Source: Polyangiales bacterium (GTDB taxonomy: Bacteria > Myxococcota_A > Polyangia > Polyangiales > Houyiibacteriaceae). Taken from it: a stretch of DNA of 64,000 nucleotides. Below are positions 49,764 through 62,672 of this stretch, piece by piece. How positions within the stretch are numbered: position 1 is the stretch's first letter; each line of letters starts with the position of its first letter. The notes under the pieces were generated by a model, which was not told the origin of the DNA, did not search any database, and saw nothing but the letters and a program-made list of their open reading frames with translations. Location: positions 32,001 to 96,000 of the forward strand of contig JBGCFM010000100.1 in NCBI GenBank assembly GCA_045106895.1. Reading direction: 5' to 3'. The position numbers and the translations under genes are program-made.

Positions 49764-50882
49764 TTAGAAGCCGAAGAACTCAAAGACGTCGGCGAGCTCT
49801 CGACGCACTTCGTCTTCCGTCACGCCAAACTCTTCCAAGCTGTACTTGTGCTTGCTCTGGTACCGACGCTGTTTTCGTGTCGCTTCGTTCAGGCGCGCTT
49901 GGTACGGCTCGCTCATTGGCAAGGACATCCAGTCGTAGAGGCCTTCGACGACGGCGCGAGGGTCGGAAACGAGGTCGGGATAGCGAACGACGCGAATACG
50001 CTCTTCCGGCAGGTCGCGGACAAGGGCTGCCCCGGCGCGATAGTACGCGTATCCCATATCGATCATTTCTCGGGACGCGTTCGTTGCTTTGCCTAGCTCC
50101 GGCGAATGAGTCTGCCATTTCGCGTGGTACATGCTGGCAAACGACGGCAACGCCTCGAAGGGGTGACGCAGCAAGTAGACGAAACGTGCGTCGGGAAAAC
50201 GCGAGAGCATCGAGCGAACACGCGGCGCGAAGAACACGTTCTTGTTCAGGAAACGTTTGTTACCTCCCACGGAGTACAGATGCTTCTTCACCGTCGCTTC
50301 GTAGAAGTCCATGAAGGCTTCGCGGTCCGCTTCGGGATGCGAATCAAGCCACGTCAGGCGCGTGTAGTTGCGCATGAAAGGGTTGAGTAAGGACAGCGAA
50401 GGTGACTCAAAGCAGTAGACGAAAGTCGTCTCGTCTTCCTCTTCTTTGTCGATGCCCATCGCGTGGATCCCGTCCCACGCGTTGTTGTCGAAGAAGGTCT
50501 TGTTGATCGTCTTCACGCCCTGCTTCCACAGAGGAGCCAGGCGCCCTTCGCCGAGGGCTGCGATGGAACGCTGAATGGACACCGCGCTAAACATCGATTG
50601 GTGGAGTTTGAAGCCTGCGAAGTTCTCTTCATCGAGGCCCATCAAACGATGAAGCATCGTGGTTCCGCTTCGACCGTTCGCGAAGATGAAGACGGGTTGC
50701 TCGACCTTTTGCTCGGCCCAATCCGGAAACGCAAAGTCGTCTACTTTGCGCGCCCCTTCGAGGAGAGTGCGCATTCCCACGAGTCCAGCGGCGTACCCTC
50801 CCCAAGTGAGGGCCCGCCTCGGGGTGAAATTCGCCGCGGCGCTGGTCAACATCTCCGAGAACACTTTTTGATTCACGTACAT
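49764..50882 (-). CDS. PAPS-dependent sulfotransferase
   Basis: 5'-PSB GRSGTTML and 3'-PB LLRHP..ALPS motifs. Confidence 0.85.
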   Translation of the reverse strand: MYVNQKVFSEMLTSAAANFTPRRALTWGGYAAGLVGMRTLLEGARKVDDFAFPDWAEQKVEQPVFIFANGRSGTTMLHRLMGLDEENFAGFKLHQSMFSAVSIQRSIAALGEGRLAPLWKQGVKTINKTFFDNNAWDGIHAMGIDKEEEDETTFVYCFESPSLSLLNPFMRNYTRLTWLDSHPEADREAFMDFYEATVKKHLYSVGGNKRFLNKNVFFAPRVRSMLSRFPDARFVYLLRHPFEALPSFASMYHAKWQTHSPELGKATNASREMIDMGYAYYRAGAALVRDLPEERIRVVRYPDLVSDPRAVVEGLYDWMSLPMSEPYQARLNEATRKQRRYQSKHKYSLEEFGVTEDEVRRELADVFEFFGF

Positions 50883-50948
50883 GGGGTGTCCTCAACCTGT
50901 CCCGCGTCGAGGGGGGCCGCAACCCCGCGGGCGTGCTATCGCTGCCCT

Positions 50949-52229
50949 ATGAAATACGGGTCCTTGTTTCTTGCGTGTGCCGTCGTCGTTGGATGTGGCG
51001 ACGACGACGTTCTGCCAATCCTCGATGCCGGAGCCATCGATGCCGCCAGTCCTGACGTCGGCAACGACGCGGGGAACGACACGGGCCCCGACCCCGACGC
51101 AGGTCCCGTTTGCGAAGCCGGCGAGGTGCCCCTCGGGCGCGGCGAACACTCCATGATCTACGACACGCGCCGCGACCGCCTGGTCGCCTTCGGCGGCACC
51201 GTGGCCTTCCCCGAGATGTGTATGCCGCGCTACGAGTACACCGACGAAATCTGGCTCTTCGATCCAGTCTGCCAAACCTGGACACAGGACACTCCTTCGA
51301 TTGGAGGCCCCGGACGCCGCGCGCGCCAGGCCATGGTGCACGACGCAGCCGGTGACCGTGCCATCGCGTTCGGGGGCCGGACGTACGAAGGCGGCTTCTC
51401 CTTCCGAATTCGCGCCGACATTCATGTCCTCGACCTGGAGACCTTGGCATGGACTGAGCTCATCCCAGCGAACGAAACGCTTCCACCTCGCTCCCACGCC
51501 GCGATGGCCTTCGACGAAACCGGCAATCGTCTCGTCGTGTTCGGCGGCAACCTTGGAGGCGGCGTCTTTAGCCCGGAACTCACCAACGACACGTGGGAGT
51601 ACGACCTGACGACGAACGAGTGGACGGAGCTGACGCCGGCGGAGTCGCCGGGCGCCCGCTACGGCCATGCCTTCACGCAAGTCGGTCGAAAAATGTACGT
51701 GTACGGCGGATCCGGACCCATGGGCAGCTTCGTGAACGACGTGTGGGAGTTCGATCTGGACACGAACGAGTGGACGGGCGTGCGCGGTGGTGGACCCGAC
51801 TCGCCGCCAAGTCGCTTCGGCGCGGCCCTCTTCGACGATGGTGCCGGCGGTCTCCTCATGGCTCTCGGACACGACGCGACGGACCTCGGAAACGTCAACG
51901 ATCTTTGGCACCTCAATCTGGCCACCAACGCTTGGACGGAGCTTCGCCACGGAGATGTACTGAGCGGAGTGGCGAACGGCATCTGCGACTTCCCCGCGGA
52001 CTTCACGACGCCGGACCTCGAGGGTCCTGAGCGCCGCAACTTCCAGGGCTACGCCGCCGGTGGGGGCCATGCCTTCATCAGCTTCGGCAAGACGGACTGC
52101 GGTAACGCCAACGACATGTGGACAATTGATCTCGCTGCGCCGGACTTTGCCCTCGCCGGACCCGCCACAACGAGCGGCGAAGCCTGCAATCGCTCTGGCC
52201 GCGAGGACTGCACCTCGCTCTGCTTCTGA
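50949..52229 (+). CDS. Kelch-repeat beta-propeller lipoprotein
   Basis: VVGC lipobox; repeated R..H..., FGG, NDxW and W motifs. Confidence 0.85.
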   Translation: MKYGSLFLACAVVVGCGDDDVLPILDAGAIDAASPDVGNDAGNDTGPDPDAGPVCEAGEVPLGRGEHSMIYDTRRDRLVAFGGTVAFPEMCMPRYEYTDEIWLFDPVCQTWTQDTPSIGGPGRRARQAMVHDAAGDRAIAFGGRTYEGGFSFRIRADIHVLDLETLAWTELIPANETLPPRSHAAMAFDETGNRLVVFGGNLGGGVFSPELTNDTWEYDLTTNEWTELTPAESPGARYGHAFTQVGRKMYVYGGSGPMGSFVNDVWEFDLDTNEWTGVRGGGPDSPPSRFGAALFDDGAGGLLMALGHDATDLGNVNDLWHLNLATNAWTELRHGDVLSGVANGICDFPADFTTPDLEGPERRNFQGYAAGGGHAFISFGKTDCGNANDMWTIDLAAPDFALAGPATTSGEACNRSGREDCTSLCF

Positions 52230-52356
52230 GCAGAGGCGGAGGTCTGGAGTAGCCGCGGCGATTGGCCAAAACGGGTCCAAACTAGACTTTTTTGACCATT
52301 TCCCCTATTGTGACAGTTGTGTGACACGGCTTTGGGCCCTAAAACACACGTGATTC

Positions 52357-54012
52357 ATGTCCGCCCCACGCCAAGAGCGCCGCAAACGAGAGCGGCATGT
52401 CACTCATCAGAGGGCGTCCGCGGTTCCACCACCTCCAGGGCCTCCACAGCCACGCAAGGCCAAGAAGGCGGCGAAGACCGTCGCCCGCCCCCAGGTTGCC
52501 GCCGACGATGGCATCCTGGCGGACGTTCTTGAACCTACCACCTCGCTCCTCGACGAAGACGAGTGGTCTTTTCGCGAGCCCAAGTGGCGTATCCACGACC
52601 GAACCCATCTCGAGTTCGCCGTGGACTACGAAATCCCCAAGGAACAGAAGAAGGAAACCTACGTCTGGGAGGCGTACTTCTTCATTCCTCGCAGCTTGAA
52701 GGTCAACAGCGACACCTTTGAAAAGCGGCACATCTACCGCGACCTGCAGTCCTACGTGCGCCTCGCCCTCCCGGCGATGCCCCTCGCCGAAGTGGCGGAG
52801 CTTCCCAAGAGCCGAATACAAGCGGCGCTTGCGGACAACACCCTTGGTATTCAGGAACTTCGCCTCTTCGCTTGTCAGCTCCGGCGGTCCGCGTCGGAGG
52901 CTCTTCGCACGATTCGAAAAGACATCGAGCGAGGAGACCTGGACGAACTTGAGCCAACCTGCACATCCTTTGCCGTGCTCCTCCGCGACTTGCTCGCGGC
53001 CTTTCGCGAAGTGATTCCCTCCGCCGTCCACGAAGAGACTCGCATCACCGCGAGCTGGATCGACGAAGACTGTTCACGCATTGTCGAGTCAACGCTGGGG
53101 CAACTCAGTATCCTTCTACGCCGCAGCGGTCACGAGAGACTCGCCGCCACCGTCGCCGGCGGCGCCGTGGAGGAGGCCGTCTATCGGCGAGACAATGACG
53201 TGGGCAGCGTCGGATATGGGGACTCCGACAAACGCGACGTCGAACACCTGGAGTTTCGTCGCCACCTCCTCAAACGATTCAGCGCGTCCGTGCTGTGGCT
53301 GCACCGCGAAGTTTCCGAAGCGGGCAAGTGGACGCTCCAGGCGCTCTACGCCATCGCCGCCAGCGTCGCGATGGCCTTCACCGTCGGTGCCGCCTTCTAC
53401 CACGGCACGCCCGACGCGAACGCATTCAATAATCTCTGGAAGTGGGCGACGATCGTCATCCTGGCGTACGCAGGAAAGGACCGCATCAAGGCGACGCTTC
53501 AGGGCGTGTTTACGAAGTGGGTCCACAAGTGGATGCCAGACCGGCGCTGGCGACTCGAAGACCGGCTCAAGCGCATCACCGTTGGAACGGTCCGCGAACG
53601 CTCGGAGTTCCTCAAGAAGAAGGACATTCCAAACGCGGTTCACACCGCCCGTGTCAGTACACATCAGCACCGCCTCGAAGAACAAGCGCGGCCCGAGCAT
53701 GTCCTGTGGCACAAGAAGGACTGCGCCGTGAATGCCGAAGCAGTTCGCGGCATGGACGAGCGCTACGGCGCCATCACGGAGATCTTTCGCCTCAACCTCC
53801 GTGAGTGGCTTGTTCATACGGACAACGCCAAGCAGCGCGCCGTCTTCGCAGACCCGGATGACCAGCACATCTACACGGCGATGGCGCCACGAGTTTACAA
53901 CATCGCCGTGGTCTACCGTCTCCGCTCGTCCACCGATGACGCCGCACCTTGGCGCCGCGTTCGCGTGATTATCTCACGCAAAGGCATCAAACGAATCGAG
54001 CGCGTTCTGTAG
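52357..54012 (+). CDS. hypothetical membrane protein (two TMs)
   Basis: 551-aa ORF with IHD...EF, YFFIP.SL and AY..KDRIK motifs; function unknown. Confidence 0.7.
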   Translation: MSAPRQERRKRERHVTHQRASAVPPPPGPPQPRKAKKAAKTVARPQVAADDGILADVLEPTTSLLDEDEWSFREPKWRIHDRTHLEFAVDYEIPKEQKKETYVWEAYFFIPRSLKVNSDTFEKRHIYRDLQSYVRLALPAMPLAEVAELPKSRIQAALADNTLGIQELRLFACQLRRSASEALRTIRKDIERGDLDELEPTCTSFAVLLRDLLAAFREVIPSAVHEETRITASWIDEDCSRIVESTLGQLSILLRRSGHERLAATVAGGAVEEAVYRRDNDVGSVGYGDSDKRDVEHLEFRRHLLKRFSASVLWLHREVSEAGKWTLQALYAIAASVAMAFTVGAAFYHGTPDANAFNNLWKWATIVILAYAGKDRIKATLQGVFTKWVHKWMPDRRWRLEDRLKRITVGTVRERSEFLKKKDIPNAVHTARVSTHQHRLEEQARPEHVLWHKKDCAVNAEAVRGMDERYGAITEIFRLNLREWLVHTDNAKQRAVFADPDDQHIYTAMAPRVYNIAVVYRLRSSTDDAAPWRRVRVIISRKGIKRIERVL

Positions 54013-56017
54013 TCTGTGTCGCTGTGCTGGTCGCACTCGCGCGTGTCTCGCTCATCGCCAGCGCCCAGAGCGGGAAGTAACGACGATAGAGGCGGTAGTC
54101 CAAGAGGGCCGTTCGGAAGAACACGCCGGTCATCATTGGCGCCGCCCAGTCACCATTCTCGGCCTGCAGAGAGCGCAACGCGCTGGCGGCGGATTCAAAG
54201 GACGAGGCGAAGGCTTGTCCACCTTCGACGAGCGTCATCGCTGCCCAAGCTGTTTGTGTTGGATGAGACGCGTCACCTTCGATGTAGCGATCTTCAAGAC
54301 AGCTGCGCCACGACTCACTGAAGGAGCCGTCGTCACGCTGCTTCGCCGCGACAAAGGAACATGCCTTTTGAATCGCGGGGTCGTCTGGGGTCGCACCCGC
54401 TGCGACCAGACCGCGTACGCCGAAGAGCGTCCCGTAGAGGTAGGCCACGCCCCAAGCTCCGTCCCAGCTTCCGTCGGCGTTTTGTGAGGCACGTAGGTAC
54501 TTCTCCGCACGCTCGATGGCTGCGTCGATGTTCGCGCGCATCATCGCTGGGTAACGACTACGAACCGCAGCGAGGGCCGCCAGGTTCGAAGCCGTGCACT
54601 CGAAGTAGGACAGCTCCGTCATCGAGTCGCCGAACATCTCCGCGGGATTCATCCACTCAAGCCCGGCGCGGACCTTTCGCGACTCATAGGAACCAAAACC
54701 TCCGTCGAAATTCTGCGCCTGCAAAAGGAAGCGTACTCCGGCTTCGATGCGCTGTGGCTTCGGCGTGTATAGCTCCTTCGGCGCTTCGAGGAACGCAAGG
54801 AGCGCCTCTGCCGTGCAGTCGCTGACAGGCCAGCCGTGCCAAATGCCGGCGAAGCAGAAGCCGCCTGTGGGGTCGACGCGATCTTGAGCCGCGTACGCGC
54901 TCACGTCCCCGCCGCTCGGCTTCATGATCTGTTGCGTCTCAAGCCACGCGAGGCCGCGAAGGAGGGCTTCGTCGACGTCGCGTCGTGCGTTTCCTTGCAG
55001 GTTCGCGCGCGCTTCGGAAAGCGCCTGCAGAGCGAATGAGGTGTCCCAGGTCGCGCTACGAGCACCGGTGACACGAAGACCTTCTTCGTCGTCTTCCCAG
55101 ACCCACCCTTTGACCGCCGCGTCGTCTTCAACGTCGCCGCCAAAACGGGCGAGCTGCGCGTGGAGGTCCGAGTCGTTTGGATCCATCGCGTGAAGTGTGA
55201 GCGCAAAGAGCAGCCCATTCACCGGCGAGAGACACGTGTAGTCTGTGCTTCGAAGCTCAAAACGAATGCGTTTGACGAAGCGCTTGAGGAGCCAGCCACG
55301 AAGGCGCGGTGAGTGGAGCCGTTCCGCGACGTTGACCGCCGCGTACACTCCCTTGAGTATCGTGCCCGGCGGCGCCCAGAGATCATTCTCGCGAAGCCGG
55401 CCTCGCGACCCCTGGAAATCTAAGGTCTCGAAACGCCGCCCTGGATAGAGTTCACTCCGCAACTCGTGGGTGAGGTTCGTGATCGGCGCCTGGACCTTCA
55501 GCGAACGAACGCTGGCCATGCCCATGTAGATCAAGCGCGTGTGGCAGTAGTAGTTCGCCGGGTGCAAAGGCACCTTCTCCGGCAGGAGCCAGGCTTCTGG
55601 AGGGACCGCGTTGACGCCTTCCCAGCGGTAGAGGCCTGCGATGGAGAGCCACACCTTGCCCCAGCTCGGGATCGTCAAGGTGTCCTCTCGCTCGAAGAAC
55701 TGCCGGGCGCCAGAGAGCAATGGGTCTGACGCGTCCAGACCGCTCATTCGCGCGGCGACATAGCAGAGCGCGGTCACGAAGAGCGATGCTTCTCCGTGAC
55801 GGTGCATGCCCCAGCAGCCGCTGCCGTCCTCAAGCTGCATCGCCGCCAGCTGCGTGATGAGCCCTGTCCTACGTCGCGGCGGAATCTCCCGTCCCATCGC
55901 ATGCATCGCGATGACATATTGCGCCGCGAGCATGGGATTCCACACCACTTCGCCTTCCCAGTGTTCTCCTTCGTTTCGCAACGAAACAAGGTGAAGGGCC
56001 GCGGTATGAAGCGTCAT
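53987..56017 (-). CDS. osc: 2,3-oxidosqualene cyclase
   Basis: VSDCTAE catalytic motif (not DXDD), YYCHTR, WGK.WL and QW repeats (QNADGSW, QAENGDW). Confidence 0.95.
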   Translation of the reverse strand: MTLHTAALHLVSLRNEGEHWEGEVVWNPMLAAQYVIAMHAMGREIPPRRRTGLITQLAAMQLEDGSGCWGMHRHGEASLFVTALCYVAARMSGLDASDPLLSGARQFFEREDTLTIPSWGKVWLSIAGLYRWEGVNAVPPEAWLLPEKVPLHPANYYCHTRLIYMGMASVRSLKVQAPITNLTHELRSELYPGRRFETLDFQGSRGRLRENDLWAPPGTILKGVYAAVNVAERLHSPRLRGWLLKRFVKRIRFELRSTDYTCLSPVNGLLFALTLHAMDPNDSDLHAQLARFGGDVEDDAAVKGWVWEDDEEGLRVTGARSATWDTSFALQALSEARANLQGNARRDVDEALLRGLAWLETQQIMKPSGGDVSAYAAQDRVDPTGGFCFAGIWHGWPVSDCTAEALLAFLEAPKELYTPKPQRIEAGVRFLLQAQNFDGGFGSYESRKVRAGLEWMNPAEMFGDSMTELSYFECTASNLAALAAVRSRYPAMMRANIDAAIERAEKYLRASQNADGSWDGAWGVAYLYGTLFGVRGLVAAGATPDDPAIQKACSFVAAKQRDDGSFSESWRSCLEDRYIEGDASHPTQTAWAAMTLVEGGQAFASSFESAASALRSLQAENGDWAAPMMTGVFFRTALLDYRLYRRYFPLWALAMSETRASATSTATQTTERARFV

Positions 56018-57331
56018 CTAAACGGCCTTTTGGCGAGCCGTGGTGAGCAACTCTCGAGCGACGTCCAGTTTGACCTGGCCGGCGTCGACAAGCTGTGCCG
56101 CGATGAGGTCCACCTCGTGGTGTTCCGCACCGGCGGCGAGCGCAACGCTGCGTGCGTGGAGCGTCATATGGCCTCGTTGAATGCCTTCAGTCGCCAACGC
56201 GCGAAGCGCACCCATGTTCTGTGCGAGACCCACCGTGGCCATGACCATTCCAAGCTCCGCGGCGGAACCTACGTCGAGGATCTTTCGCAAAACACGAATC
56301 GTTGGGTGCACTTGAGTGCTTCCGCCAACGACACCGACGGCCATGGGCAGCTCGATGCTCCCCATGAGGTAACCATCTTCGCGCCACCACTTGGTGAGAG
56401 AAGTGTAGCGGCCGTCACGAGCGGCGTACGCGTGCGCGCCCGCTTCAACACTTCGCCAGTCGTTGCCCGTGGCAATGGCCACAGCATCGATGCCGTTCAT
56501 CACGCCCTTGTTGTGTGTCGCCGCACGATAAGGGTCGACTGCCGCAAATCGGTATGCCTGCACGATGCCCTCGGCCACCTCGGCGCCGGAGTAGCCGTTG
56601 CCCGCCAAGTGAATCTCTGGAACGCGACAGGAGGCGCGCGCACAGCGGCGGTCCGCCAGGTTCGAGAGGATGCGCAAGTTCACGCGCCCCTTCGTCAGCT
56701 CTTCAATGCGACCCGCAACGCCTTCGGCCATCGCGTTGACCGCGTTGGCGCCCATCGCTTCGCCGCAGTCGACGAGGAGATGAACGACGAGCATTGGGAA
56801 CTCGTCATCGAAGCGCCGGACCTCGATGTCACGTGCACCGCCGCCGCGCTTCTTCATGTTCGGATGAACACGGTCAGCGAGAGTAAGCAGCTCTTCCTTC
56901 GCGTCCTCCAAAGCCTTCACAGCGGCATCGACGTCGGGAAGGTCGAGGACCTGGACCTGACCGATCATCATCGATGGATCGGCAGAACCCGTGAATCCGC
57001 CGGCTTTGCGAACGGTCCGCGCCATGTTCGAGACCGCCGCGACAACACTCGGCTCCTCGACGACCATCGGAATGACGTAGTCACGTCCGTTGAGGTGGAA
57101 GTTCAGACCGAGTCCAATGGGGAGTCCGAAGACGCCCACACAGTTCTCAACCATCTTGTCCGCGCGGCCCACGCCAAGACGTCCACCGTCGCGGAGGACG
57201 TCGAGGTCTTCGCTGGTGAGACCGAAGCGCTTACCGAGTTCGGCGTGACGCTCGCCCACTTCGAGGCGGTAGAAACCGGGGATTCGCGACTCACGTCGCC
57301 GACTGGAGGAGTTGATCGTTTCTTCGGTCAT
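56018..57331 (-). CDS. mvaA: HMG-CoA reductase, class II
   Basis: MVEN, EEPSVVAA, EAMGAN, ILSNL, YRAATHNKG and GIQRGHM motifs. Confidence 0.95.
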   Translation of the reverse strand: MTEETINSSSRRRESRIPGFYRLEVGERHAELGKRFGLTSEDLDVLRDGGRLGVGRADKMVENCVGVFGLPIGLGLNFHLNGRDYVIPMVVEEPSVVAAVSNMARTVRKAGGFTGSADPSMMIGQVQVLDLPDVDAAVKALEDAKEELLTLADRVHPNMKKRGGGARDIEVRRFDDEFPMLVVHLLVDCGEAMGANAVNAMAEGVAGRIEELTKGRVNLRILSNLADRRCARASCRVPEIHLAGNGYSGAEVAEGIVQAYRFAAVDPYRAATHNKGVMNGIDAVAIATGNDWRSVEAGAHAYAARDGRYTSLTKWWREDGYLMGSIELPMAVGVVGGSTQVHPTIRVLRKILDVGSAAELGMVMATVGLAQNMGALRALATEGIQRGHMTLHARSVALAAGAEHHEVDLIAAQLVDAGQVKLDVARELLTTARQKAV

Positions 57332-58476
57332 GCCGACACCTGGTCTTCCGTGGACTTTTTGGGCTTCGAGCTGAGCTTCGTGAGCCCTTTTTCGTCGAGG
57401 TATTCCTGCCATTTACGAATCGTCAGATCTTGGAAAGACCGAACGACGGGGTTGATCTCTGCGAGGGGTTCGTCCCAGAAACGCTCCCAACCCCTTTGTT
57501 CTTCCTCAACAGCGACAGCATCTTCACCAAGGAGTGGTTTGATGGTCAGTTCATTGGCGATTTGCATGAAAGGACGCATCAACGCCTTCGGGATTCGCGC
57601 GGAAGTGAAAGGAACCTTGAAGCTCTTGAAGCAGAAAAGGAAGAACGCGCGTGATGTGCGTTCGTCGATGGGCAGCACGAAGAGCCAATGCTTGATCTGG
57701 TCGTCCGTGTTCGAGAACTGGTAGGGGTACTGGTAACCGAGCTTCATGCTGCTCGTGTCGATGGACTTCCGGTCGATGAAGAGACCGCTGAAGCGGCCCG
57801 TTCCAACCTTCGTGTCGTACTCAAGATGTACCGTGTCCCCGACGGTCTCGTAGCTGAGGAGTTCCGCGTCGGTGAAGGGACGGAAACGTCGATGCAGATA
57901 GGCGTGGGTAAAGTCGCTCACGTTGTCGAGAATCATCGAGTGGTGTGCTTGCCAGGTGGCATCCACGGGAACGCAGGTCCAAGCGTCCGGTCCCTCGAGC
58001 TCTGGAATGCTCGGCATCGGTACGCTTTCTGCGCGCTCCGCGTCACCGAAGAACACCCAAATCAGCCCGTACTTCAGCTTCACCGGCAGGTGAGGAACCT
58101 TGAACTTGGGAAACTTCCGCCCGAAGAGCGAGTGCGGAATGTCTACAACGCGCCCTTCCCCATCGTAGGTCCAGCCATGGTAGGGACAGACAAGGTTGCA
58201 TCCATCGACATGCCCCGTGGAGAGCCGCAGCTGGCGGTGAGCGCAGCGATTTTCGATGGCACGAACGACGTCATCTTCGCCGCGAAAGACAGCGATGGAG
58301 CGCTTCCAAAACACCACCTCTTTGACTTCGCCCTTGGGCAGAGCCTTCTCGTACTCAACGGCGTACCAGTAGTTTGGGTTCATCCCCGCGGAGCGGACCT
58401 TTTGGCGAACGTTCTTTGACTCCTCAAAGGACGGCGGAGGCGTAGCGGATCGAACGTAGGGGTTTCGCTTGCTCAT
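57328..58476 (-). CDS. Rieske non-heme iron oxygenase, probable sterol C-4 methyl oxidase (SdmA-like)
   Basis: CAH...CPYHGW Rieske motif and DNVSDFTHAYLH iron site; SdmA identity inferred from context. Confidence 0.75.
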   Translation of the reverse strand: MSKRNPYVRSATPPPSFEESKNVRQKVRSAGMNPNYWYAVEYEKALPKGEVKEVVFWKRSIAVFRGEDDVVRAIENRCAHRQLRLSTGHVDGCNLVCPYHGWTYDGEGRVVDIPHSLFGRKFPKFKVPHLPVKLKYGLIWVFFGDAERAESVPMPSIPELEGPDAWTCVPVDATWQAHHSMILDNVSDFTHAYLHRRFRPFTDAELLSYETVGDTVHLEYDTKVGTGRFSGLFIDRKSIDTSSMKLGYQYPYQFSNTDDQIKHWLFVLPIDERTSRAFFLFCFKSFKVPFTSARIPKALMRPFMQIANELTIKPLLGEDAVAVEEEQRGWERFWDEPLAEINPVVRSFQDLTIRKWQEYLDEKGLTKLSSKPKKSTEDQVSA

Positions 58477-58487
58477 GACGGGTGTTC

Positions 58488-59588
58488 CTAAGCGTGAATC
58501 GTTACGTGAGGGACGCTCGCCGATGGCGAGTTCGTCGGCTGTGGTGCACGTGCGTTCTTGTTCGTGATGCCGCCTCGACCCCAGTGGAACGCGTAGGCGT
58601 CGGCGAAGGCGTCTTCAATGGAGCCCGGAACGAACCCGAGCTCGTTCTTCGCTTTGGAGGTGTCCGCGTGACGCATCAGACGCAGGCGGCGGATCGCCCC
58701 AGGTGTGAGCAGCTGTGGCGCCTTGGGTCGGAAGCGCGTCATGAAGAAGCTCGTCGCTTCGGCGATGGGAAGCATCAACTGGTTCGGTACGCGGAAGCGC
58801 GGGCGAGGCTGACCGGTGATCTTCTCGAAGATCGCGAAGATGTCGTCGAGCGTCATGAACTTCGTCGCGATGATGTACTTCTGACCCGAGCGTCCCTTGT
58901 CGAGGGCCAGCAGGTGACCTTGAACGAGGTCCTTCGCGGCCACGAACTCGAAGCCGCCATTGACGTAGGCGTTCAACTCCCCGTTGGCGAAACGACAGAG
59001 CGTCCGACCCATGCGGGAAGGCAAGTAGTCATGGCCACCCACCACGGCGCAGCTCGTCACGATGAGAGCGTCCTGTCCTTCAGCGACGGCCTTCAAGACT
59101 TCGTGCTCCTGGAGCACCTTGCTGCGCTCGTAGGGCATCGCGCGGTGGTAGGGGTAGAAACCCATGGACTCGTCCGCCGGGAGGTCCGTCTGGTCGAGGT
59201 CGTATCCAACGGCGGAGAATGACCCCGTCACGATGGTCCGGCGCACGTTGTTCTCGCGTGCGATGCGCAGCAAGTGACGGGTGCCGATCACGTTCGTCTC
59301 GTAGATGGTGCGCCGATGCGCAGCGTCTCCATCAATAGTGGAGACCATCGATGCGACGTGAATGATGTCCCGGACACCCTTGATAGCAGGCGTGAGCGTG
59401 GAGGGGTCGCGAAGGTCGCCGTACGCTTCTTCAACGGGCAATGAACGGATGGCTTCGTTGTTCTCTCCGCGGCGCAGAAGAACGCGAACGCGCTTTCCTT
59501 CTTCGACAAGCTGGTGGACGACGTTCGCACCGACGTGGCCGGCGCCACCTGTCACGAGAATCGGAGCATCTTTTTGGGGTTGGGTCAT
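58488..59588 (-). CDS. extended SDR (3beta-HSD/decarboxylase-like), probable SdmB
   Basis: TGGAGHVG and YERSK motifs; adjacent to the Rieske gene inside the sterol operon. Confidence 0.75.
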   Translation of the reverse strand: MTQPQKDAPILVTGGAGHVGANVVHQLVEEGKRVRVLLRRGENNEAIRSLPVEEAYGDLRDPSTLTPAIKGVRDIIHVASMVSTIDGDAAHRRTIYETNVIGTRHLLRIARENNVRRTIVTGSFSAVGYDLDQTDLPADESMGFYPYHRAMPYERSKVLQEHEVLKAVAEGQDALIVTSCAVVGGHDYLPSRMGRTLCRFANGELNAYVNGGFEFVAAKDLVQGHLLALDKGRSGQKYIIATKFMTLDDIFAIFEKITGQPRPRFRVPNQLMLPIAEATSFFMTRFRPKAPQLLTPGAIRRLRLMRHADTSKAKNELGFVPGSIEDAFADAYAFHWGRGGITNKNARAPQPTNSPSASVPHVTIHA

Positions 59589-59603: not shown

Positions 59604-62600
59604 TCAGTTCGCGCTCGCGCTGCGCACTTGTTCTTGCGCAGGCAGTTTCCATAGCTGGTCGTAGTGCGCACGAAGCGCAGCGTCGTCTCCGACGCGCGCC
59701 ATGCACTCACCGATAAGTCGTTCCACTTCTTCTCGGGCAATCTTCACCGGCGCGCCGGCGACGAACATAGCGTCGTTGCCCCGCCCGTGTACGAGTGTCC
59801 GAACGGCCATCCAAAGTGGCAGCAAGCAGAACAGCCGCACGGACGTCTGCTCTTTCGGAATCGTCAGCGTGTATTCAAGGGCGCGGTCGAGGTGCTCTTG
59901 TGCTCGGTCAAAGAGGGGTGCGACGGCGGCGTGGGCCGCGTCTCTCTTGTTCTCGTCGACGAGGTTCTGAATCGTCAGTCCGGCGGCTGCACAGGAAGTG
60001 CGGGGCACGTAAGAGACGTGCCGTGTTCGGTCGTCGGTCACATCTTTGAGAATGTTGACGAGCTGAAGACCGAGTCCAAACGCTTCTGCGTTCTTCCGCA
60101 GGTCGAGTTCCAACGACGCGCTCTCCCGCCCGAACTCTTCAACGAAGAGGTCCGTCAACATGTGACCGACGGTACCCGCGACGAAGAAGCAGTAACGCTC
60201 AAGGTCTTCAACGGTATGCATCGCGTTGAACCCATCGGCTTCGTTGCCGCGATGCGAGTAAAGCTGCATGCCCCGAACCATCTCTTCAATCCAGCGGGTG
60301 GCCTTGCGCTGCATCTCGCTTGGGATGGACCGATAGACACGCATCACGACGGAGAGATGGCGCGCCAAATCGGCTTCCGTTTCGTCGCCGCGGACCCCTT
60401 CGAAGAGGCGCTCGAAGCGTTTGACTTCGGCGCTCTCGGGCGATGCCTGCAGAGCGCTGAGGAACACGTGGTAGCGCTCGTCGCGTTCACTCATGGTGAA
60501 GAACGCGTTGTCTTCGATGGTGTCGGCGATACGGCAGAGAAGGTAACCGCACATTACTGCGGAGCGAAGGTCTCCAGGGAGCATCTCAATGGGGCGCGCG
60601 AAGCTTCGTGAGACCGCCAGGAGCGCGTCGTGGCAGTAAGCGTGGTCTGCGGCACTGGCGCGCCCTGCTCTCTGCTTTCCAGGAGCCTGAAGACGCGAAG
60701 TGCGCATGTCGCGGTAAAGCCGAAGCGCCTCACCAGCCAACTCGTCCAGTGAGTCTTCGCTAGAAAGCGACACAAGACACGCCGCGGCGGCGTCGACGTA
60801 GGGCGCGCCGGTTCGCAAAATGGCGCGGGCAACAAGAGTGGTCGTCCGCAAGTCACCGATGCGACCGGTGTCTTGCTGAGCGGCGGCCACGTGCCGAAAG
60901 GCACGGCGAATGCGCGGATGAAAGACCGGCATGCCTGCCGTGACAAGGCATTCGGCGGCGAGAGCTGTTCGTCGTAGATCTCCGAAAGACCCGCTCGCCT
61001 CTTGCTCGCGTTCGAGGCGCTCGCGCAAAGGAATCAGCGCCGACTGCAAGAGACTGGCGCGAAGTCCGGGGAGTTCGGTCGCGACCTCGGCGAGAACGAG
61101 GACGCTCTTGCTCGTTGCTTGGAGGTCGAGGTCAGCCTTCGAGGCAACCTGCGCTGCGACGCGGCGGGCGACACTCTGCGCGAGCGCAACCGTTTCGCCG
61201 AGCGCGGGCCCTCCAATGGAGCGCCGAAGTCGCGTCTCTTCGTCCAGCGCATCACTCGACTCACGCACTCGCGCGATGAGAGCGTCTACATCGACGTCGA
61301 CGGATGCAGGCGCCGGGGCGCGTCCTCGTTCCGGCGCAGCGGGGCGGATTCGAAGGCCCGCAAGGGGATGCGCCGCGGAGCTCTTGTCACGAACGCGTTG
61401 GCGCAACGCCGTGGGCAAAAGGCTCGCCGCCGGCCACTGCGCGAACTCCATGAAGGTGCCGAGTTTGTGGGCTTTCCCGGAAGTGATCTGCCCGGCAGCG
61501 GCGCCCGCCGCCACGCGCACAAACGCAGCGCCAAACTGACCGAGTCGAAGCTCGTCGCCGCCGAGGATGCGCATCGTTCGGTCTCGCTCGGCGCGGCTAT
61601 TTCGCCACGTCGAGTACATCGAGTCGCGGATGGCCACGGCGGCCTCGTCGTCGCGATTAAAGACGTGGTGGAGCGCGTTTGCGAGTAGCTCCGGCGTGTA
61701 GCTGCGGGGCTCACGCTTGGCCGCGTAGCTCGCGGCGTCGTCACTCTCAACGAGGGCGGCGGCGTCCTTGAGCCCGATGGTGATCCCGCTGGCGGTCAGC
61801 GGATGGTAAAAGCCCACGGCGTCACCAACGAGAGCGACGTGTCCTTCTCCGTACGCCGCGCGCGGCGAGAAGCGATTGCACGCCCAGATGAGGCGCTGGG
61901 TCTCAAGAGCGCGCCTGAATGCGCCGCGAAGAGAGACAGGGAAGCGATCGCCGAAGGCTTCCCAGAGGTAGCGCGCGTCCCGCCGTGAACCCGGGTAGTC
62001 GACGGGCACGTCGATGCAGGCGCGTACTCGCCCTGGAGCGATGCGGTAAAGAAGAACCGGACCGGGACCGCCGAGCAACACATGGCCGAACCCCTCGAAG
62101 GGAAGTTCAACGTCCTCGAGCTCAAGCCCCGCCATGTAGGAGACGATGTCGGCGTTGGTGGGTCCGTAGAGGCTCTTGCGAACAACGGACGAGCGACCGT
62201 CAGCACCGACGATGCGCCCCGCATGTACCACGGTCTCGGCCTCACCCTTGCGCTGAAGCGTCACGTTGTGACCCTCAATCTTGGTGACTCGGACCCCTTC
62301 GATGTACTCGAGGCCAGGAATCTCACTCGCCTGTGCGCGTAGACCCGTGACCAGCTCCCCATGCTCACACGTGAAGCCGAGCTGGCGATCCGTATACTCA
62401 AGACGAATTGGATCCGTGCCATCGTCCGGGAACACCGCGAACCCCTCACACGCCAGGTGACCTGCCGTGATGCCGTGGGGAGTCAGCTCAAGTTTCGCCA
62501 GGGCGGCGGCGCCTGCGGGGTGAATCCACTCACCAGCGAAGCGAAAGGACGCTTTGGGATTGGCCTCAACCAGGAGAACGCTCAGGCCGCGTCGGGCAAA

Positions 62601-62672
62601 ACCAGCGGCCGCAGCGACACCAGCAGGGCCGGCTCCGGCGACGAGGACATCGTAGTGTTGGGACGTGCTCAT
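59604..62672 (-). CDS. squalene epoxidase - squalene synthase fusion protein
   Basis: N-terminal GAGPAG, GEWIHPAG, GADG and GDA...HPLTASG; C-terminal VSRSF, RIADTIED, YCFFVAGTVG and LQLVNILKD. Confidence 0.88.
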   Translation of the reverse strand: MSTSQHYDVLVAGAGPAGVAAAAGFARRGLSVLLVEANPKASFRFAGEWIHPAGAAALAKLELTPHGITAGHLACEGFAVFPDDGTDPIRLEYTDRQLGFTCEHGELVTGLRAQASEIPGLEYIEGVRVTKIEGHNVTLQRKGEAETVVHAGRIVGADGRSSVVRKSLYGPTNADIVSYMAGLELEDVELPFEGFGHVLLGGPGPVLLYRIAPGRVRACIDVPVDYPGSRRDARYLWEAFGDRFPVSLRGAFRRALETQRLIWACNRFSPRAAYGEGHVALVGDAVGFYHPLTASGITIGLKDAAALVESDDAASYAAKREPRSYTPELLANALHHVFNRDDEAAVAIRDSMYSTWRNSRAERDRTMRILGGDELRLGQFGAAFVRVAAGAAAGQITSGKAHKLGTFMEFAQWPAASLLPTALRQRVRDKSSAAHPLAGLRIRPAAPERGRAPAPASVDVDVDALIARVRESSDALDEETRLRRSIGGPALGETVALAQSVARRVAAQVASKADLDLQATSKSVLVLAEVATELPGLRASLLQSALIPLRERLEREQEASGSFGDLRRTALAAECLVTAGMPVFHPRIRRAFRHVAAAQQDTGRIGDLRTTTLVARAILRTGAPYVDAAAACLVSLSSEDSLDELAGEALRLYRDMRTSRLQAPGKQRAGRASAADHAYCHDALLAVSRSFARPIEMLPGDLRSAVMCGYLLCRIADTIEDNAFFTMSERDERYHVFLSALQASPESAEVKRFERLFEGVRGDETEADLARHLSVVMRVYRSIPSEMQRKATRWIEEMVRGMQLYSHRGNEADGFNAMHTVEDLERYCFFVAGTVGHMLTDLFVEEFGRESASLELDLRKNAEAFGLGLQLVNILKDVTDDRTRHVSYVPRTSCAAAGLTIQNLVDENKRDAAHAAVAPLFDRAQEHLDRALEYTLTIPKEQTSVRLFCLLPLWMAVRTLVHGRGNDAMFVAGAPVKIAREEVERLIGECMARVGDDAALRAHYDQLWKLPAQEQVRSASAN

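Follow-up and report, generated by a model that had tools for sequence, protein, structure and literature searches.

Among bacteria, the Myxococcota have the sterol pathways most like those of eukaryotes, and the abstracts of two sources (PMC8237579; 10.1101/2024.11.01.621555) discuss them as a lineage from which early eukaryotes may have obtained sterol synthesis. The described proteins closest to the one analysed here are oxidosqualene cyclase (OSC) and the other class II triterpene cyclases (PF13243; human OSC, PDB 1W6K; squalene-hopene cyclase (SHC), 1SQC/2SQC); fusions of squalene epoxidase (SE, also squalene monooxygenase, SMO) to OSC, for which Brown et al. 2023 (PMC10070321) mention in their methods the trimming of 'fused SMO/OSC homologs'; and single-toroid class II cyclases (PDB 8PAK and 8PAJ, 361-365 aa), small cyclase-derived alpha/alpha proteins, some of them myxobacterial, which judged by their deposited names and the DMS-1 passage of PMC12414744 are enzymes with a full single barrel. 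Here, we analyse a 1022-aa fusion protein encoded in a 64,000-nucleotide stretch of a Polyangiales bacterium (contig JBGCFM010000100.1 of GCA_045106895.1, positions 32,001 to 96,000; called the window for simplicity), in which SE and squalene synthase (SQS) flank a middle region that is almost certainly homologous to the C-terminal part of OSC. At a rough probability of 0.6, we read the homologous part (the relic) as a dead, OSC-derived pseudo-enzyme domain that came from an SE-OSC type of donor and was retained as a folded structural module.

The relic shares with the class II cyclases a helical-hairpin repeat with the signatures Q..(D)G.(F/W)G and T.A..AL, is colinear with OSC residues 402-668 and, judged by the top Foldseek rows, probably has the same fold class, but it comprises only about 190 residues (about one third of a cyclase), lacks the second barrel, the DCTAE/DxDD acid and the cavity aromatics, and is placed between two other enzymes; in the window it lacks the QW tryptophans as well. 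The SE-OSC fusions resemble the window protein in having an N-terminal SE followed by cyclase-derived sequence, and the SE domains of the two kinds form neighbouring clades. They carry a complete, presumably active OSC, no SQS and no free OSC in the locus, whereas the window protein has a fragment of 190 aa where those have the full OSC, has SQS added and is accompanied by a free OSC. Matches of the relic profile to the single-toroid cyclases 8PAK and 8PAJ were weak (3e-6 and 3e-5); the relic is shorter than these, has no acid motif, and matches OSC better and colinearly. A check of whether 8PAK might be the middle cut out of the Cystobacter fuscus fusion showed that it is not. In the full texts searched no description of an SE-cyclase-like-SQS fusion was found, the nearest text being the mention of 'fused SMO/OSC homologs' in the methods cited above.

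Homology of the middle region to oxidosqualene cyclase

An earlier note, made from the sequence by eye, had aligned the region 60700-61300 with the OSC of the same operon, by segments that lie at fusion residues 553-564 and 575-605 (window 60858-61016) and at OSC residues 507-518 and 536-566. The region corresponds to residues ~458-657 and lies within residues 431-676, a stretch without Pfam match above threshold. The alignment proved real: the Smith-Waterman score of the middle against the OSC was 85, a value that was not reached once when the middle was shuffled 1000 times (mean 37.9, sd 5.2), nor in 1000 shuffles of the OSC (Gumbel P ~5e-6 to 1e-5). The reversed middle scored 50, the SE part 40 and the SQS part 42. 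Because the shuffled, reversed, SE and SQS controls were all low, we regard the resemblance as real and specific to the middle. BLASTP gave 31.2 bits (E 4e-5) with 27% identity over 108 residues.

Profiles were built from ten middles (A2), 19 middles (A3, the relic profile) and 21 OSC sequences (A4). In hhalign, A3 matched A4 with 99.2% probability (E 7.6e-20, 193 columns) and A2 matched A4 with 98.6%. The A3 alignment is colinear, pairing OSC 402-668 with relic residues ~480-665; it begins at T402-A403-E404 of the DCTAE motif and stops at OSC residue 668, eight residues short of the cyclase end. Control comparisons of the relic with the SE part (0.2%), the SQS part (0.4%) and the reversed OSC (0.1%) stayed low, as did those of the OSC with the reversed relic (0.1%), SQS (0.1%) and SE (0.4%). 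The relic matched OSC 401-676 with E 5.9e-22; against OSC 1-400 hhalign aligned just 64 columns (E 1.2e-6), which reflects repeat similarity in general, and gave no colinear match. A MAFFT placement that derived the first repeat from an N-terminal OSC helix was rejected for the colinear hhalign solution.

Searches of the PDB bear on a competing explanation, namely that the middle belongs to the alpha/alpha-toroid repeat domains in general (prenyltransferases, SHC-like proteins or small stand-alone cyclase C-terminal domains) and does not derive specifically from OSC; such a domain might still have an isoprenoid as ligand, for instance squalene, which it would sense or hold. With the A2 profile, the first ten rows were class II cyclases, among them SHC (2e-16), ent-copalyl diphosphate synthase and lanosterol synthase, and transcobalamin and the alpha-2-macroglobulin thioester-containing domain (TED) followed below. 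The earlier note would have been refuted by the absence of a significant profile or structural match to the prenyltransferase/squalene-cyclase barrel; the hhalign and PDB profile matches speak against such an absence. With A3, hmmsearch returned SHC at 1.4e-17 and lanosterol synthase at 1e-9. SHC thus heads the list through multiple repeat matches, which suits a generic toroid, as do the weak matches to transcobalamin and TED and the stand-alone cyclase-C-domain proteins of 240-320 aa in the nearest ESM-Atlas clusters (nearest named clusters in the feature search: squalene-cyclase C-terminal-domain proteins, 0.93, a result that also supports homology to the cyclases). Yet the longest single-stretch match is that to lanosterol synthase (profile 89-206 against enzyme residues 533-677), the colinear match covers 193-239 columns, beginning at SD..AE in the catalytic motif and ending with the C-terminus of the cyclase, and a single domain of a real OSC scores as much as 124 bits, compared with 36 for the best domain of the one non-OSC cyclase (L072). 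The loss of all conserved cavity aromatics further argues against a ligand in the old pocket, and we consider the generic toroid very unlikely.

Among eight relatives scanned with Pfam, the middle gave a sub-threshold SQHop_cyclase_C match in four (best 5.6e-5), Cobalamin_bind, also an alpha/alpha toroid, in two and no match in the remaining two; in the relative L070, SQHop_cyclase_C scored 26.9 bits and reached the gathering score. By the hhalign and PDB profile matches and the relatives that reach the gathering score, the relic family belongs by sequence to the class II terpene cyclase superfamily. When the middle served as query in a word-indexed search, eight full-length fusions were returned.

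Lost catalytic features, predicted fold and selection

Residues 396-676 of the OSC contain 53 columns that are identical in at least 20 of the 21 OSC sequences, and D400-E404 is invariant among all 21. The window relic retains 13 of these 53 columns, comprising Q, G, T and L of the repeat scaffold and one doubtful D, and none of the 12 aromatic ones. C401, T402 and E404 are lost, the residues aligned at the TAE position are unrelated to DCTAE, and several loops are deleted. The QW repeat motif is Q-x2-5-G-x-W; the corresponding repeats of the window, QEASGSFG and QQDTGRIG, deviate from it, whereas the relatives P0008, P0009, P0012 and P0013 keep the tryptophan in the second repeat (DGGWGD or DGSW). 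The earlier note had reported both the QW tryptophans and DCTAE as absent, and residues 431-676 indeed contain no W and no DCTAE. The N-terminal two thirds of the cyclase are gone, and with them the two-barrel architecture of the ~650-aa OSC. For a relic reduced to about a third of a cyclase, with neither acid motif nor cavity aromatics, catalysis is not credible, and it is very probably dead as an enzyme.

AlphaFold2 run on A2 gave an all-helical model (predicted local distance difference test (pLDDT) 88.9, predicted template modelling score (pTM) 0.83), and the full-length fusion was modelled with a mean pLDDT of 85.6 and a pTM of 0.64. In the full-length model the relic helices (491-510, 517-533, 539-556, 566-578, 586-597, 608-621, 626-638 and 644-659) have a pLDDT of ~90 and are flanked by short low-confidence linkers only (pLDDT 65-85 in blocks 451-480). 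Foldseek against the PDB, a comparison proposed in the earlier note, gave a divided answer: the top rows are alpha/alpha toroids (transcobalamin, the C4b TED, SHC, drimenyl diphosphate synthase and human OSC) with probability 1.00 and query-normalised TM-scores (TMq) of 0.45-0.58, none of them at E<=0.001, so that the result serves as fold-class support only. The model corresponds to a partial barrel at most. SHC was matched with TMq 0.58 and human OSC with TMq 0.52 (root mean square deviation 4.0 over 196 columns). Some four of the helical hairpins that build the C-terminal alpha/alpha barrel would be represented in it. The three-domain layout of the earlier note (SE, dead cyclase fragment, SQS) is supported by the profile matches, by the lost catalytic columns and, within the limit just given, by the fold class.

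The closest genome record to the window is a Polyangiales metagenome-assembled genome (MAG; L001, 91% identity). Between the two, the relic has pN 0.136, pS 0.69 and dN/dS 0.079, compared with dN/dS 0.036 for SE and 0.029 for SQS; dS of this pair is near saturation (1.1-1.9) and the ratios are rough. The relic is under purifying selection (dN/dS ~0.08). It also has conserved features of its own that have no counterpart in OSCs, namely an invariant RR at 589-590, a PGL motif and LYRD.

Distribution and origin of the fragment

A genome scan yielded 80 loci, which were chosen by two SE peptide patterns and are therefore a biased sample. Their SE-bearing open reading frames (ORFs) comprised 19 SE-relic-SQS fusions (window included), two with a long relic, four SE-SQS fusions with a short linker, 12 in which neighbouring genes encode SE and SQS, 20 SE-OSC fusions plus L042, and 20 classed as 'SE only', six of which are truncated by the contig and have relic-like tails. 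A free OSC was present in 16 of 18 relic loci, both lacking it being on short contigs, and in 2/2 long-form, 4/4 short-linker, 11/12 adjacent-gene and 0/20 SE-OSC loci. In addition, a database search with the whole protein gave 175 matches at E<=1e-20, from which 120 SE...SQS fusions were listed. The middles of these 120 were shorter than 100 aa in 12 proteins, 220-300 aa in 31 (the class of the window protein), 320-420 aa in 74 and of other lengths in three. Relic-bearing fusions are numerous in Myxococcota.

The long form, with a middle of ~360 aa in proteins of ~1130-1200 aa, is the commonest SE-relic-SQS form among the listed fusions and includes proteins of Cystobacter fuscus (P0077) and Sandaracinus amylolyticus (P0081). 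It has the architecture and relic boundaries of the window form, falls into the same SE clade, and its N-terminal linker is homologous to the short one (99.1%). It differs in having an extra segment of ~113 aa and a clearer first repeat; the 1022-aa form of the window is more eroded and unseen by Pfam, whereas SQHop_cyclase_C reached its gathering score in six of eight long-form proteins scanned. A profile of 70 long-form sequences matched OSC with 99.7% probability (E 3.1e-27) from the motif position to the C-terminus, and at the site of SDCTAE in OSCs the long forms keep 'SD.AE'. In these longer relatives automated annotation already picks up faint traces of the domain, a class II cyclase turned pseudo-enzyme relic within a pathway fusion, which the literature searched does not describe. 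The extra segment is N-terminal and helical (GPAMRMMRAI...GRRRL-like; proteins P0037-P0125) and has no OSC match; long-form loci are L018:8999-12424 and L029:3985-7416. Among the other relatives, P0015 (1200 aa), one of two found by phmmer, has three textbook Q..DGSFG repeats. It is divergent and carries Pro/Ser/Gly-rich tandem inserts, PSSDRPSSDRPSPDR-like inside SE and GGEPRGGEPLGSEP-like between relic and SQS.

The SE-OSC fusions are single ORFs of ~990-1555 aa in 21 of the 80 loci (L019-L026, L028, L031, L033, L036, L038, L039, L042, L044, L048, L056, L061, L064 and L077), with OSC parts that score 467-653 bits against the window OSC. Their hosts are MAGs of Myxococcota, Dehalococcoidia/Chloroflexota, Pseudomonadota and Spirochaetota. 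Directly upstream of several of these genes lies an ORF of ~375-405 aa that weakly resembles SE in its FAD-binding part (L020:12211-13341, L028:12017-13138, L026:8743-9957, L061:8736-9884 and L077:7430-8647) and may encode a further FAD oxidoreductase acting in the squalene pathway. Extensions of ~410-420 residues N-terminal to SE without Pfam match are found in L025:3852-8519 and L059:8193-12368; over-calling of the start in GC-rich DNA could account for them, as could additional domains.

When relics and OSC C-terminal regions were placed in one tree, all 19 relics fell on one side of a branch and the 21 OSCs on the other (Shimodaira-Hasegawa-like approximate likelihood ratio test 100), and the relics do not pair with the OSC of their own genome. 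All examined relics begin at the DCTAE position. The fragment has a single origin, probably early in a Myxococcota lineage of SE-SQS fusions. For the SE-domain tree, L042 was left out and seven ORFs with less than 330 residues of SE coverage had been dropped beforehand; the 20 SE-OSC fusions form one clade (98), which adjoins a clade of 50 rows (95) with every relic bearer, including the earliest branch, L016. A hidden Markov model (HMM) of the long relic gave a median best-domain score of 111 bits on SE-fused OSCs (n=20), 58-88 on free OSCs, and 60.5 and 73.4 (67 for the two) on the OSCs neighbouring the relics themselves. Because the SE clades are neighbours and the SE-fused OSCs score highest, descent from an SE-OSC type of fusion is favoured, and we put the chances of this ancestry at about even.

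A different route to the same protein would be the capture of a 3' partial duplicate of the neighbouring free OSC gene between adjacent SE and SQS genes, which would itself have created the fusion. In many loci, L018, L029, L059 and L070 among them, the SE-SQS unit is followed immediately downstream by the free OSC, and in the SE tree rooted on Actinomycetota the two classes of fusion fall into distinct sister clades, as independent events would have it. Capture nonetheless sits badly with relics that form one clade rather than grouping with the OSC of their own genome, and with an HMM that scores the neighbouring OSCs low and the SE-fused OSCs high. We therefore judge it rather unlikely.

According to the reading that we prefer, residues ~480-665 would derive from the OSC stretch that runs from the DCTAE helix to the C-terminus. 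Loss of the acid motif, the cavity aromatics, several loops and the N-terminal two thirds would leave the domain unable to cyclise, and the separate OSC gene would perform this step. The likeliest donor would be an OSC like those that the neighbouring clade carries as SE fusions, and the fragment would have been kept as a folded, selected module whose present role may be that of a structural connector in a bifunctional SQS/SE enzyme. We propose the connector role tentatively, at slightly less than even odds.

Several observations speak against this reading. Concerning homology, an exhaustive phmmer search of 1.84 billion representatives with the window middle found only two relatives, so that the remote evidence is all profile-based, and Pfam matched the window middle alone only to Cobalamin_bind (E 0.063). 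The summed PDB score is higher for SHC than for OSC, owing to the repeat matches. The profile comparison was made with OSC, and the preference for OSC over SHC rests on colinearity, context and the single non-OSC cyclase. The Foldseek E-values and the near-saturated dS given above belong here as well. Concerning origin, the attachment of the relic stem to the OSCs is an open polytomy, and hhalign did not separate fused from free OSC subsets (140.9 vs 136.9). The SE tree is a quick LG+G4 tree of 77 rows rooted on Actinomycetota rows that do not lie on one side of a branch, and a single gain of the relic would need four losses on it with SE and SQS retained; because it was lost four times, if gained once, the relic is not essential for SE or SQS catalysis. 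The earlier note had suggested a remnant of an ancestral SE-OSC-SQS fusion. The neighbouring SE-OSC clade and the high scores of SE-fused OSCs agree with it, but none of the 120 fusions listed is an SE-full-OSC-SQS protein, and SE-OSC linkers showed no junction homology to the N-terminal linkers of the relics (0.2-0.6%). Ten middles are at least 400 aa long, and the largest four (529, 469, 425 and 423 aa) match only OSC ~380-668. This absence of an intermediate with a fuller cyclase among the largest middles, like that of junction homology, would suit the capture of a duplicate. Concerning function, the whole-protein pTM of 0.64 by itself says little about the connector role.

The sterol operon and the place of the fragment in it

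The locus is a bacterial sterol operon (Table 1). By Pfam, residues 1-~430 match squalene epoxidase (PF08491, residues 155-372, E 4.4e-25, 88.7 bits, cut-off 20.1) and FAD_binding_3 (residues 7-308, E 3e-17, 63.3 bits, cut-off 22), and the nucleotide-binding motif GAGPAG (FAD-binding GxGxxG) at residues 13-18 is invariant across nine fusions; the part is thus a predicted squalene epoxidase. Residues ~677-1022 match SQS_PSY (PF00494, residues 686-979, E 4.7e-43, 148.2 bits, cut-off 26) and TIGR01559 (E 1.3e-33), the latter with a score of 116.6 that is under the equivalog cut-off of 286.75. DTIED (717-721) and DVTDD (877-881), which we take to be the aspartate-rich motifs of SQS, are likewise invariant across the nine fusions, and profile match and motifs together make this part a predicted squalene synthase. 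The two parts flanking the relic are apparently intact enzymes. The free OSC, 3.6 kb downstream of the fusion and separated from it by the block 56018..59588 (-), matches TIGR03463 (E 5.7e-189), SQHop_cyclase_N and SQHop_cyclase_C. Two of the genes in the block, the SDR/3-beta-HSD-type gene and the Rieske oxygenase gene, are presumably an SdmB/SdmA-type pair for C-4 demethylation.

Table 1. Features of the fusion gene and of the operon in the window (SDR, short-chain dehydrogenase/reductase; HSD, hydroxysteroid dehydrogenase; AF2, AlphaFold2).
Feature	Position	Strand	Residues or size	Basis
Whole fusion ORF (P0001): SE, relic cyclase domain, SQS	59604..62672	-	1022 aa	
Putative squalene epoxidase domain (FAD monooxygenase)	61383..62672	-	1-~430	Pfam
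Linker with conserved HPL and VDVDAL motifs	61236..61382	-	431-479	Alignments of relatives
Relic of the C-terminal OSC barrel part; hairpin repeats, 8 main helices (491-659)	60678..61235	-	~480-665	hhalign, AF2
Putative squalene synthase domain, plus stop codon	59604..60644	-	~677-1022	Pfam, TIGR01559
SDR/3-beta-HSD-type gene, between fusion and OSC	58488-59588	-		Pfam
Rieske oxygenase gene, between fusion and OSC	57328-58476	-		Pfam
HMG-CoA reductase gene, between Rieske oxygenase and OSC	56018-57412	-		Pfam, E 1.6e-108
Free complete OSC (P0002), DCTAE at residues 400-404	53987..56017	-	676 aa	TIGR03463, Pfam

The called start of the HMG-CoA reductase overlaps the Rieske ORF by 85 nt, and the true start is probably further downstream. 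ORFs of 230-551 aa lie directly downstream of the OSC (53116-53868 (-), 52339-53031 (-), 50892-52280 (-) and 52357-54012 (+)); none of them has a Pfam match at E<=1e-5, and some may not be real genes. Just past the OSC end of the operon are a sulfotransferase-family ORF (49764-50882 (-)) and a multi-Kelch-repeat ORF (50463-52229 (+)), which are on opposite strands, overlap only at 50463-50882 and may both be real. A sulfotransferase beside sterol genes could hint at sterol sulfation.

With a complete OSC in the same operon, the relic might instead be a docking module, as the earlier note had also proposed for the free OSC, that has retained part of a cyclase surface and thereby brings the free OSC or a different sterol enzyme to SE-SQS; the first three committed steps would then form an assembly at the membrane surface that passes squalene and oxidosqualene on without release. 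Purifying selection on the relic, its own conserved features (RR 589-590, PGL, LYRD) and the free OSC of most relic and all long-form loci are in keeping with this, but the free OSC is as frequent in short-linker and unfused loci, so that the co-occurrence is not specific to the relic. The four losses on the SE tree also count against docking. When a complex between the free OSC (A4) and the relic (A3) was predicted, the score was 0.00 in both runs, which were made without controls, and nothing is drawn from it. We regard docking as quite unlikely.

A bolder and, in our view, unlikely extension is that the half-barrel, rather than being a passive spacer, is a neo-functionalised module that holds the SE-SQS fusion, the free OSC and the hydrophobic intermediates together. 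If this were true, the module would bind the free OSC or cradle squalene or oxidosqualene between active sites, and the first three committed sterol steps would be one machine assembled around a pseudo-cyclase. The module would also be a datable fossil of a time when SE and OSC were one polypeptide in the proposed source lineage of eukaryotic sterol synthesis.

For practical work, the long-form relatives call for caution in annotation, as a 'cyclase' Pfam match in them does not equal cyclase activity, and the natural bifunctional SQS-SE scaffold would be usable in engineering the production of squalene and oxidosqualene. For the biology of these Myxococcota, the preferred reading of a dead, OSC-derived domain kept as a folded module would make the fusion a clean case of an enzyme domain retained for its structure after loss of its chemistry, and the pseudo-cyclase between SE and SQS would preserve traces of how the first three sterol genes were once fused and rearranged.

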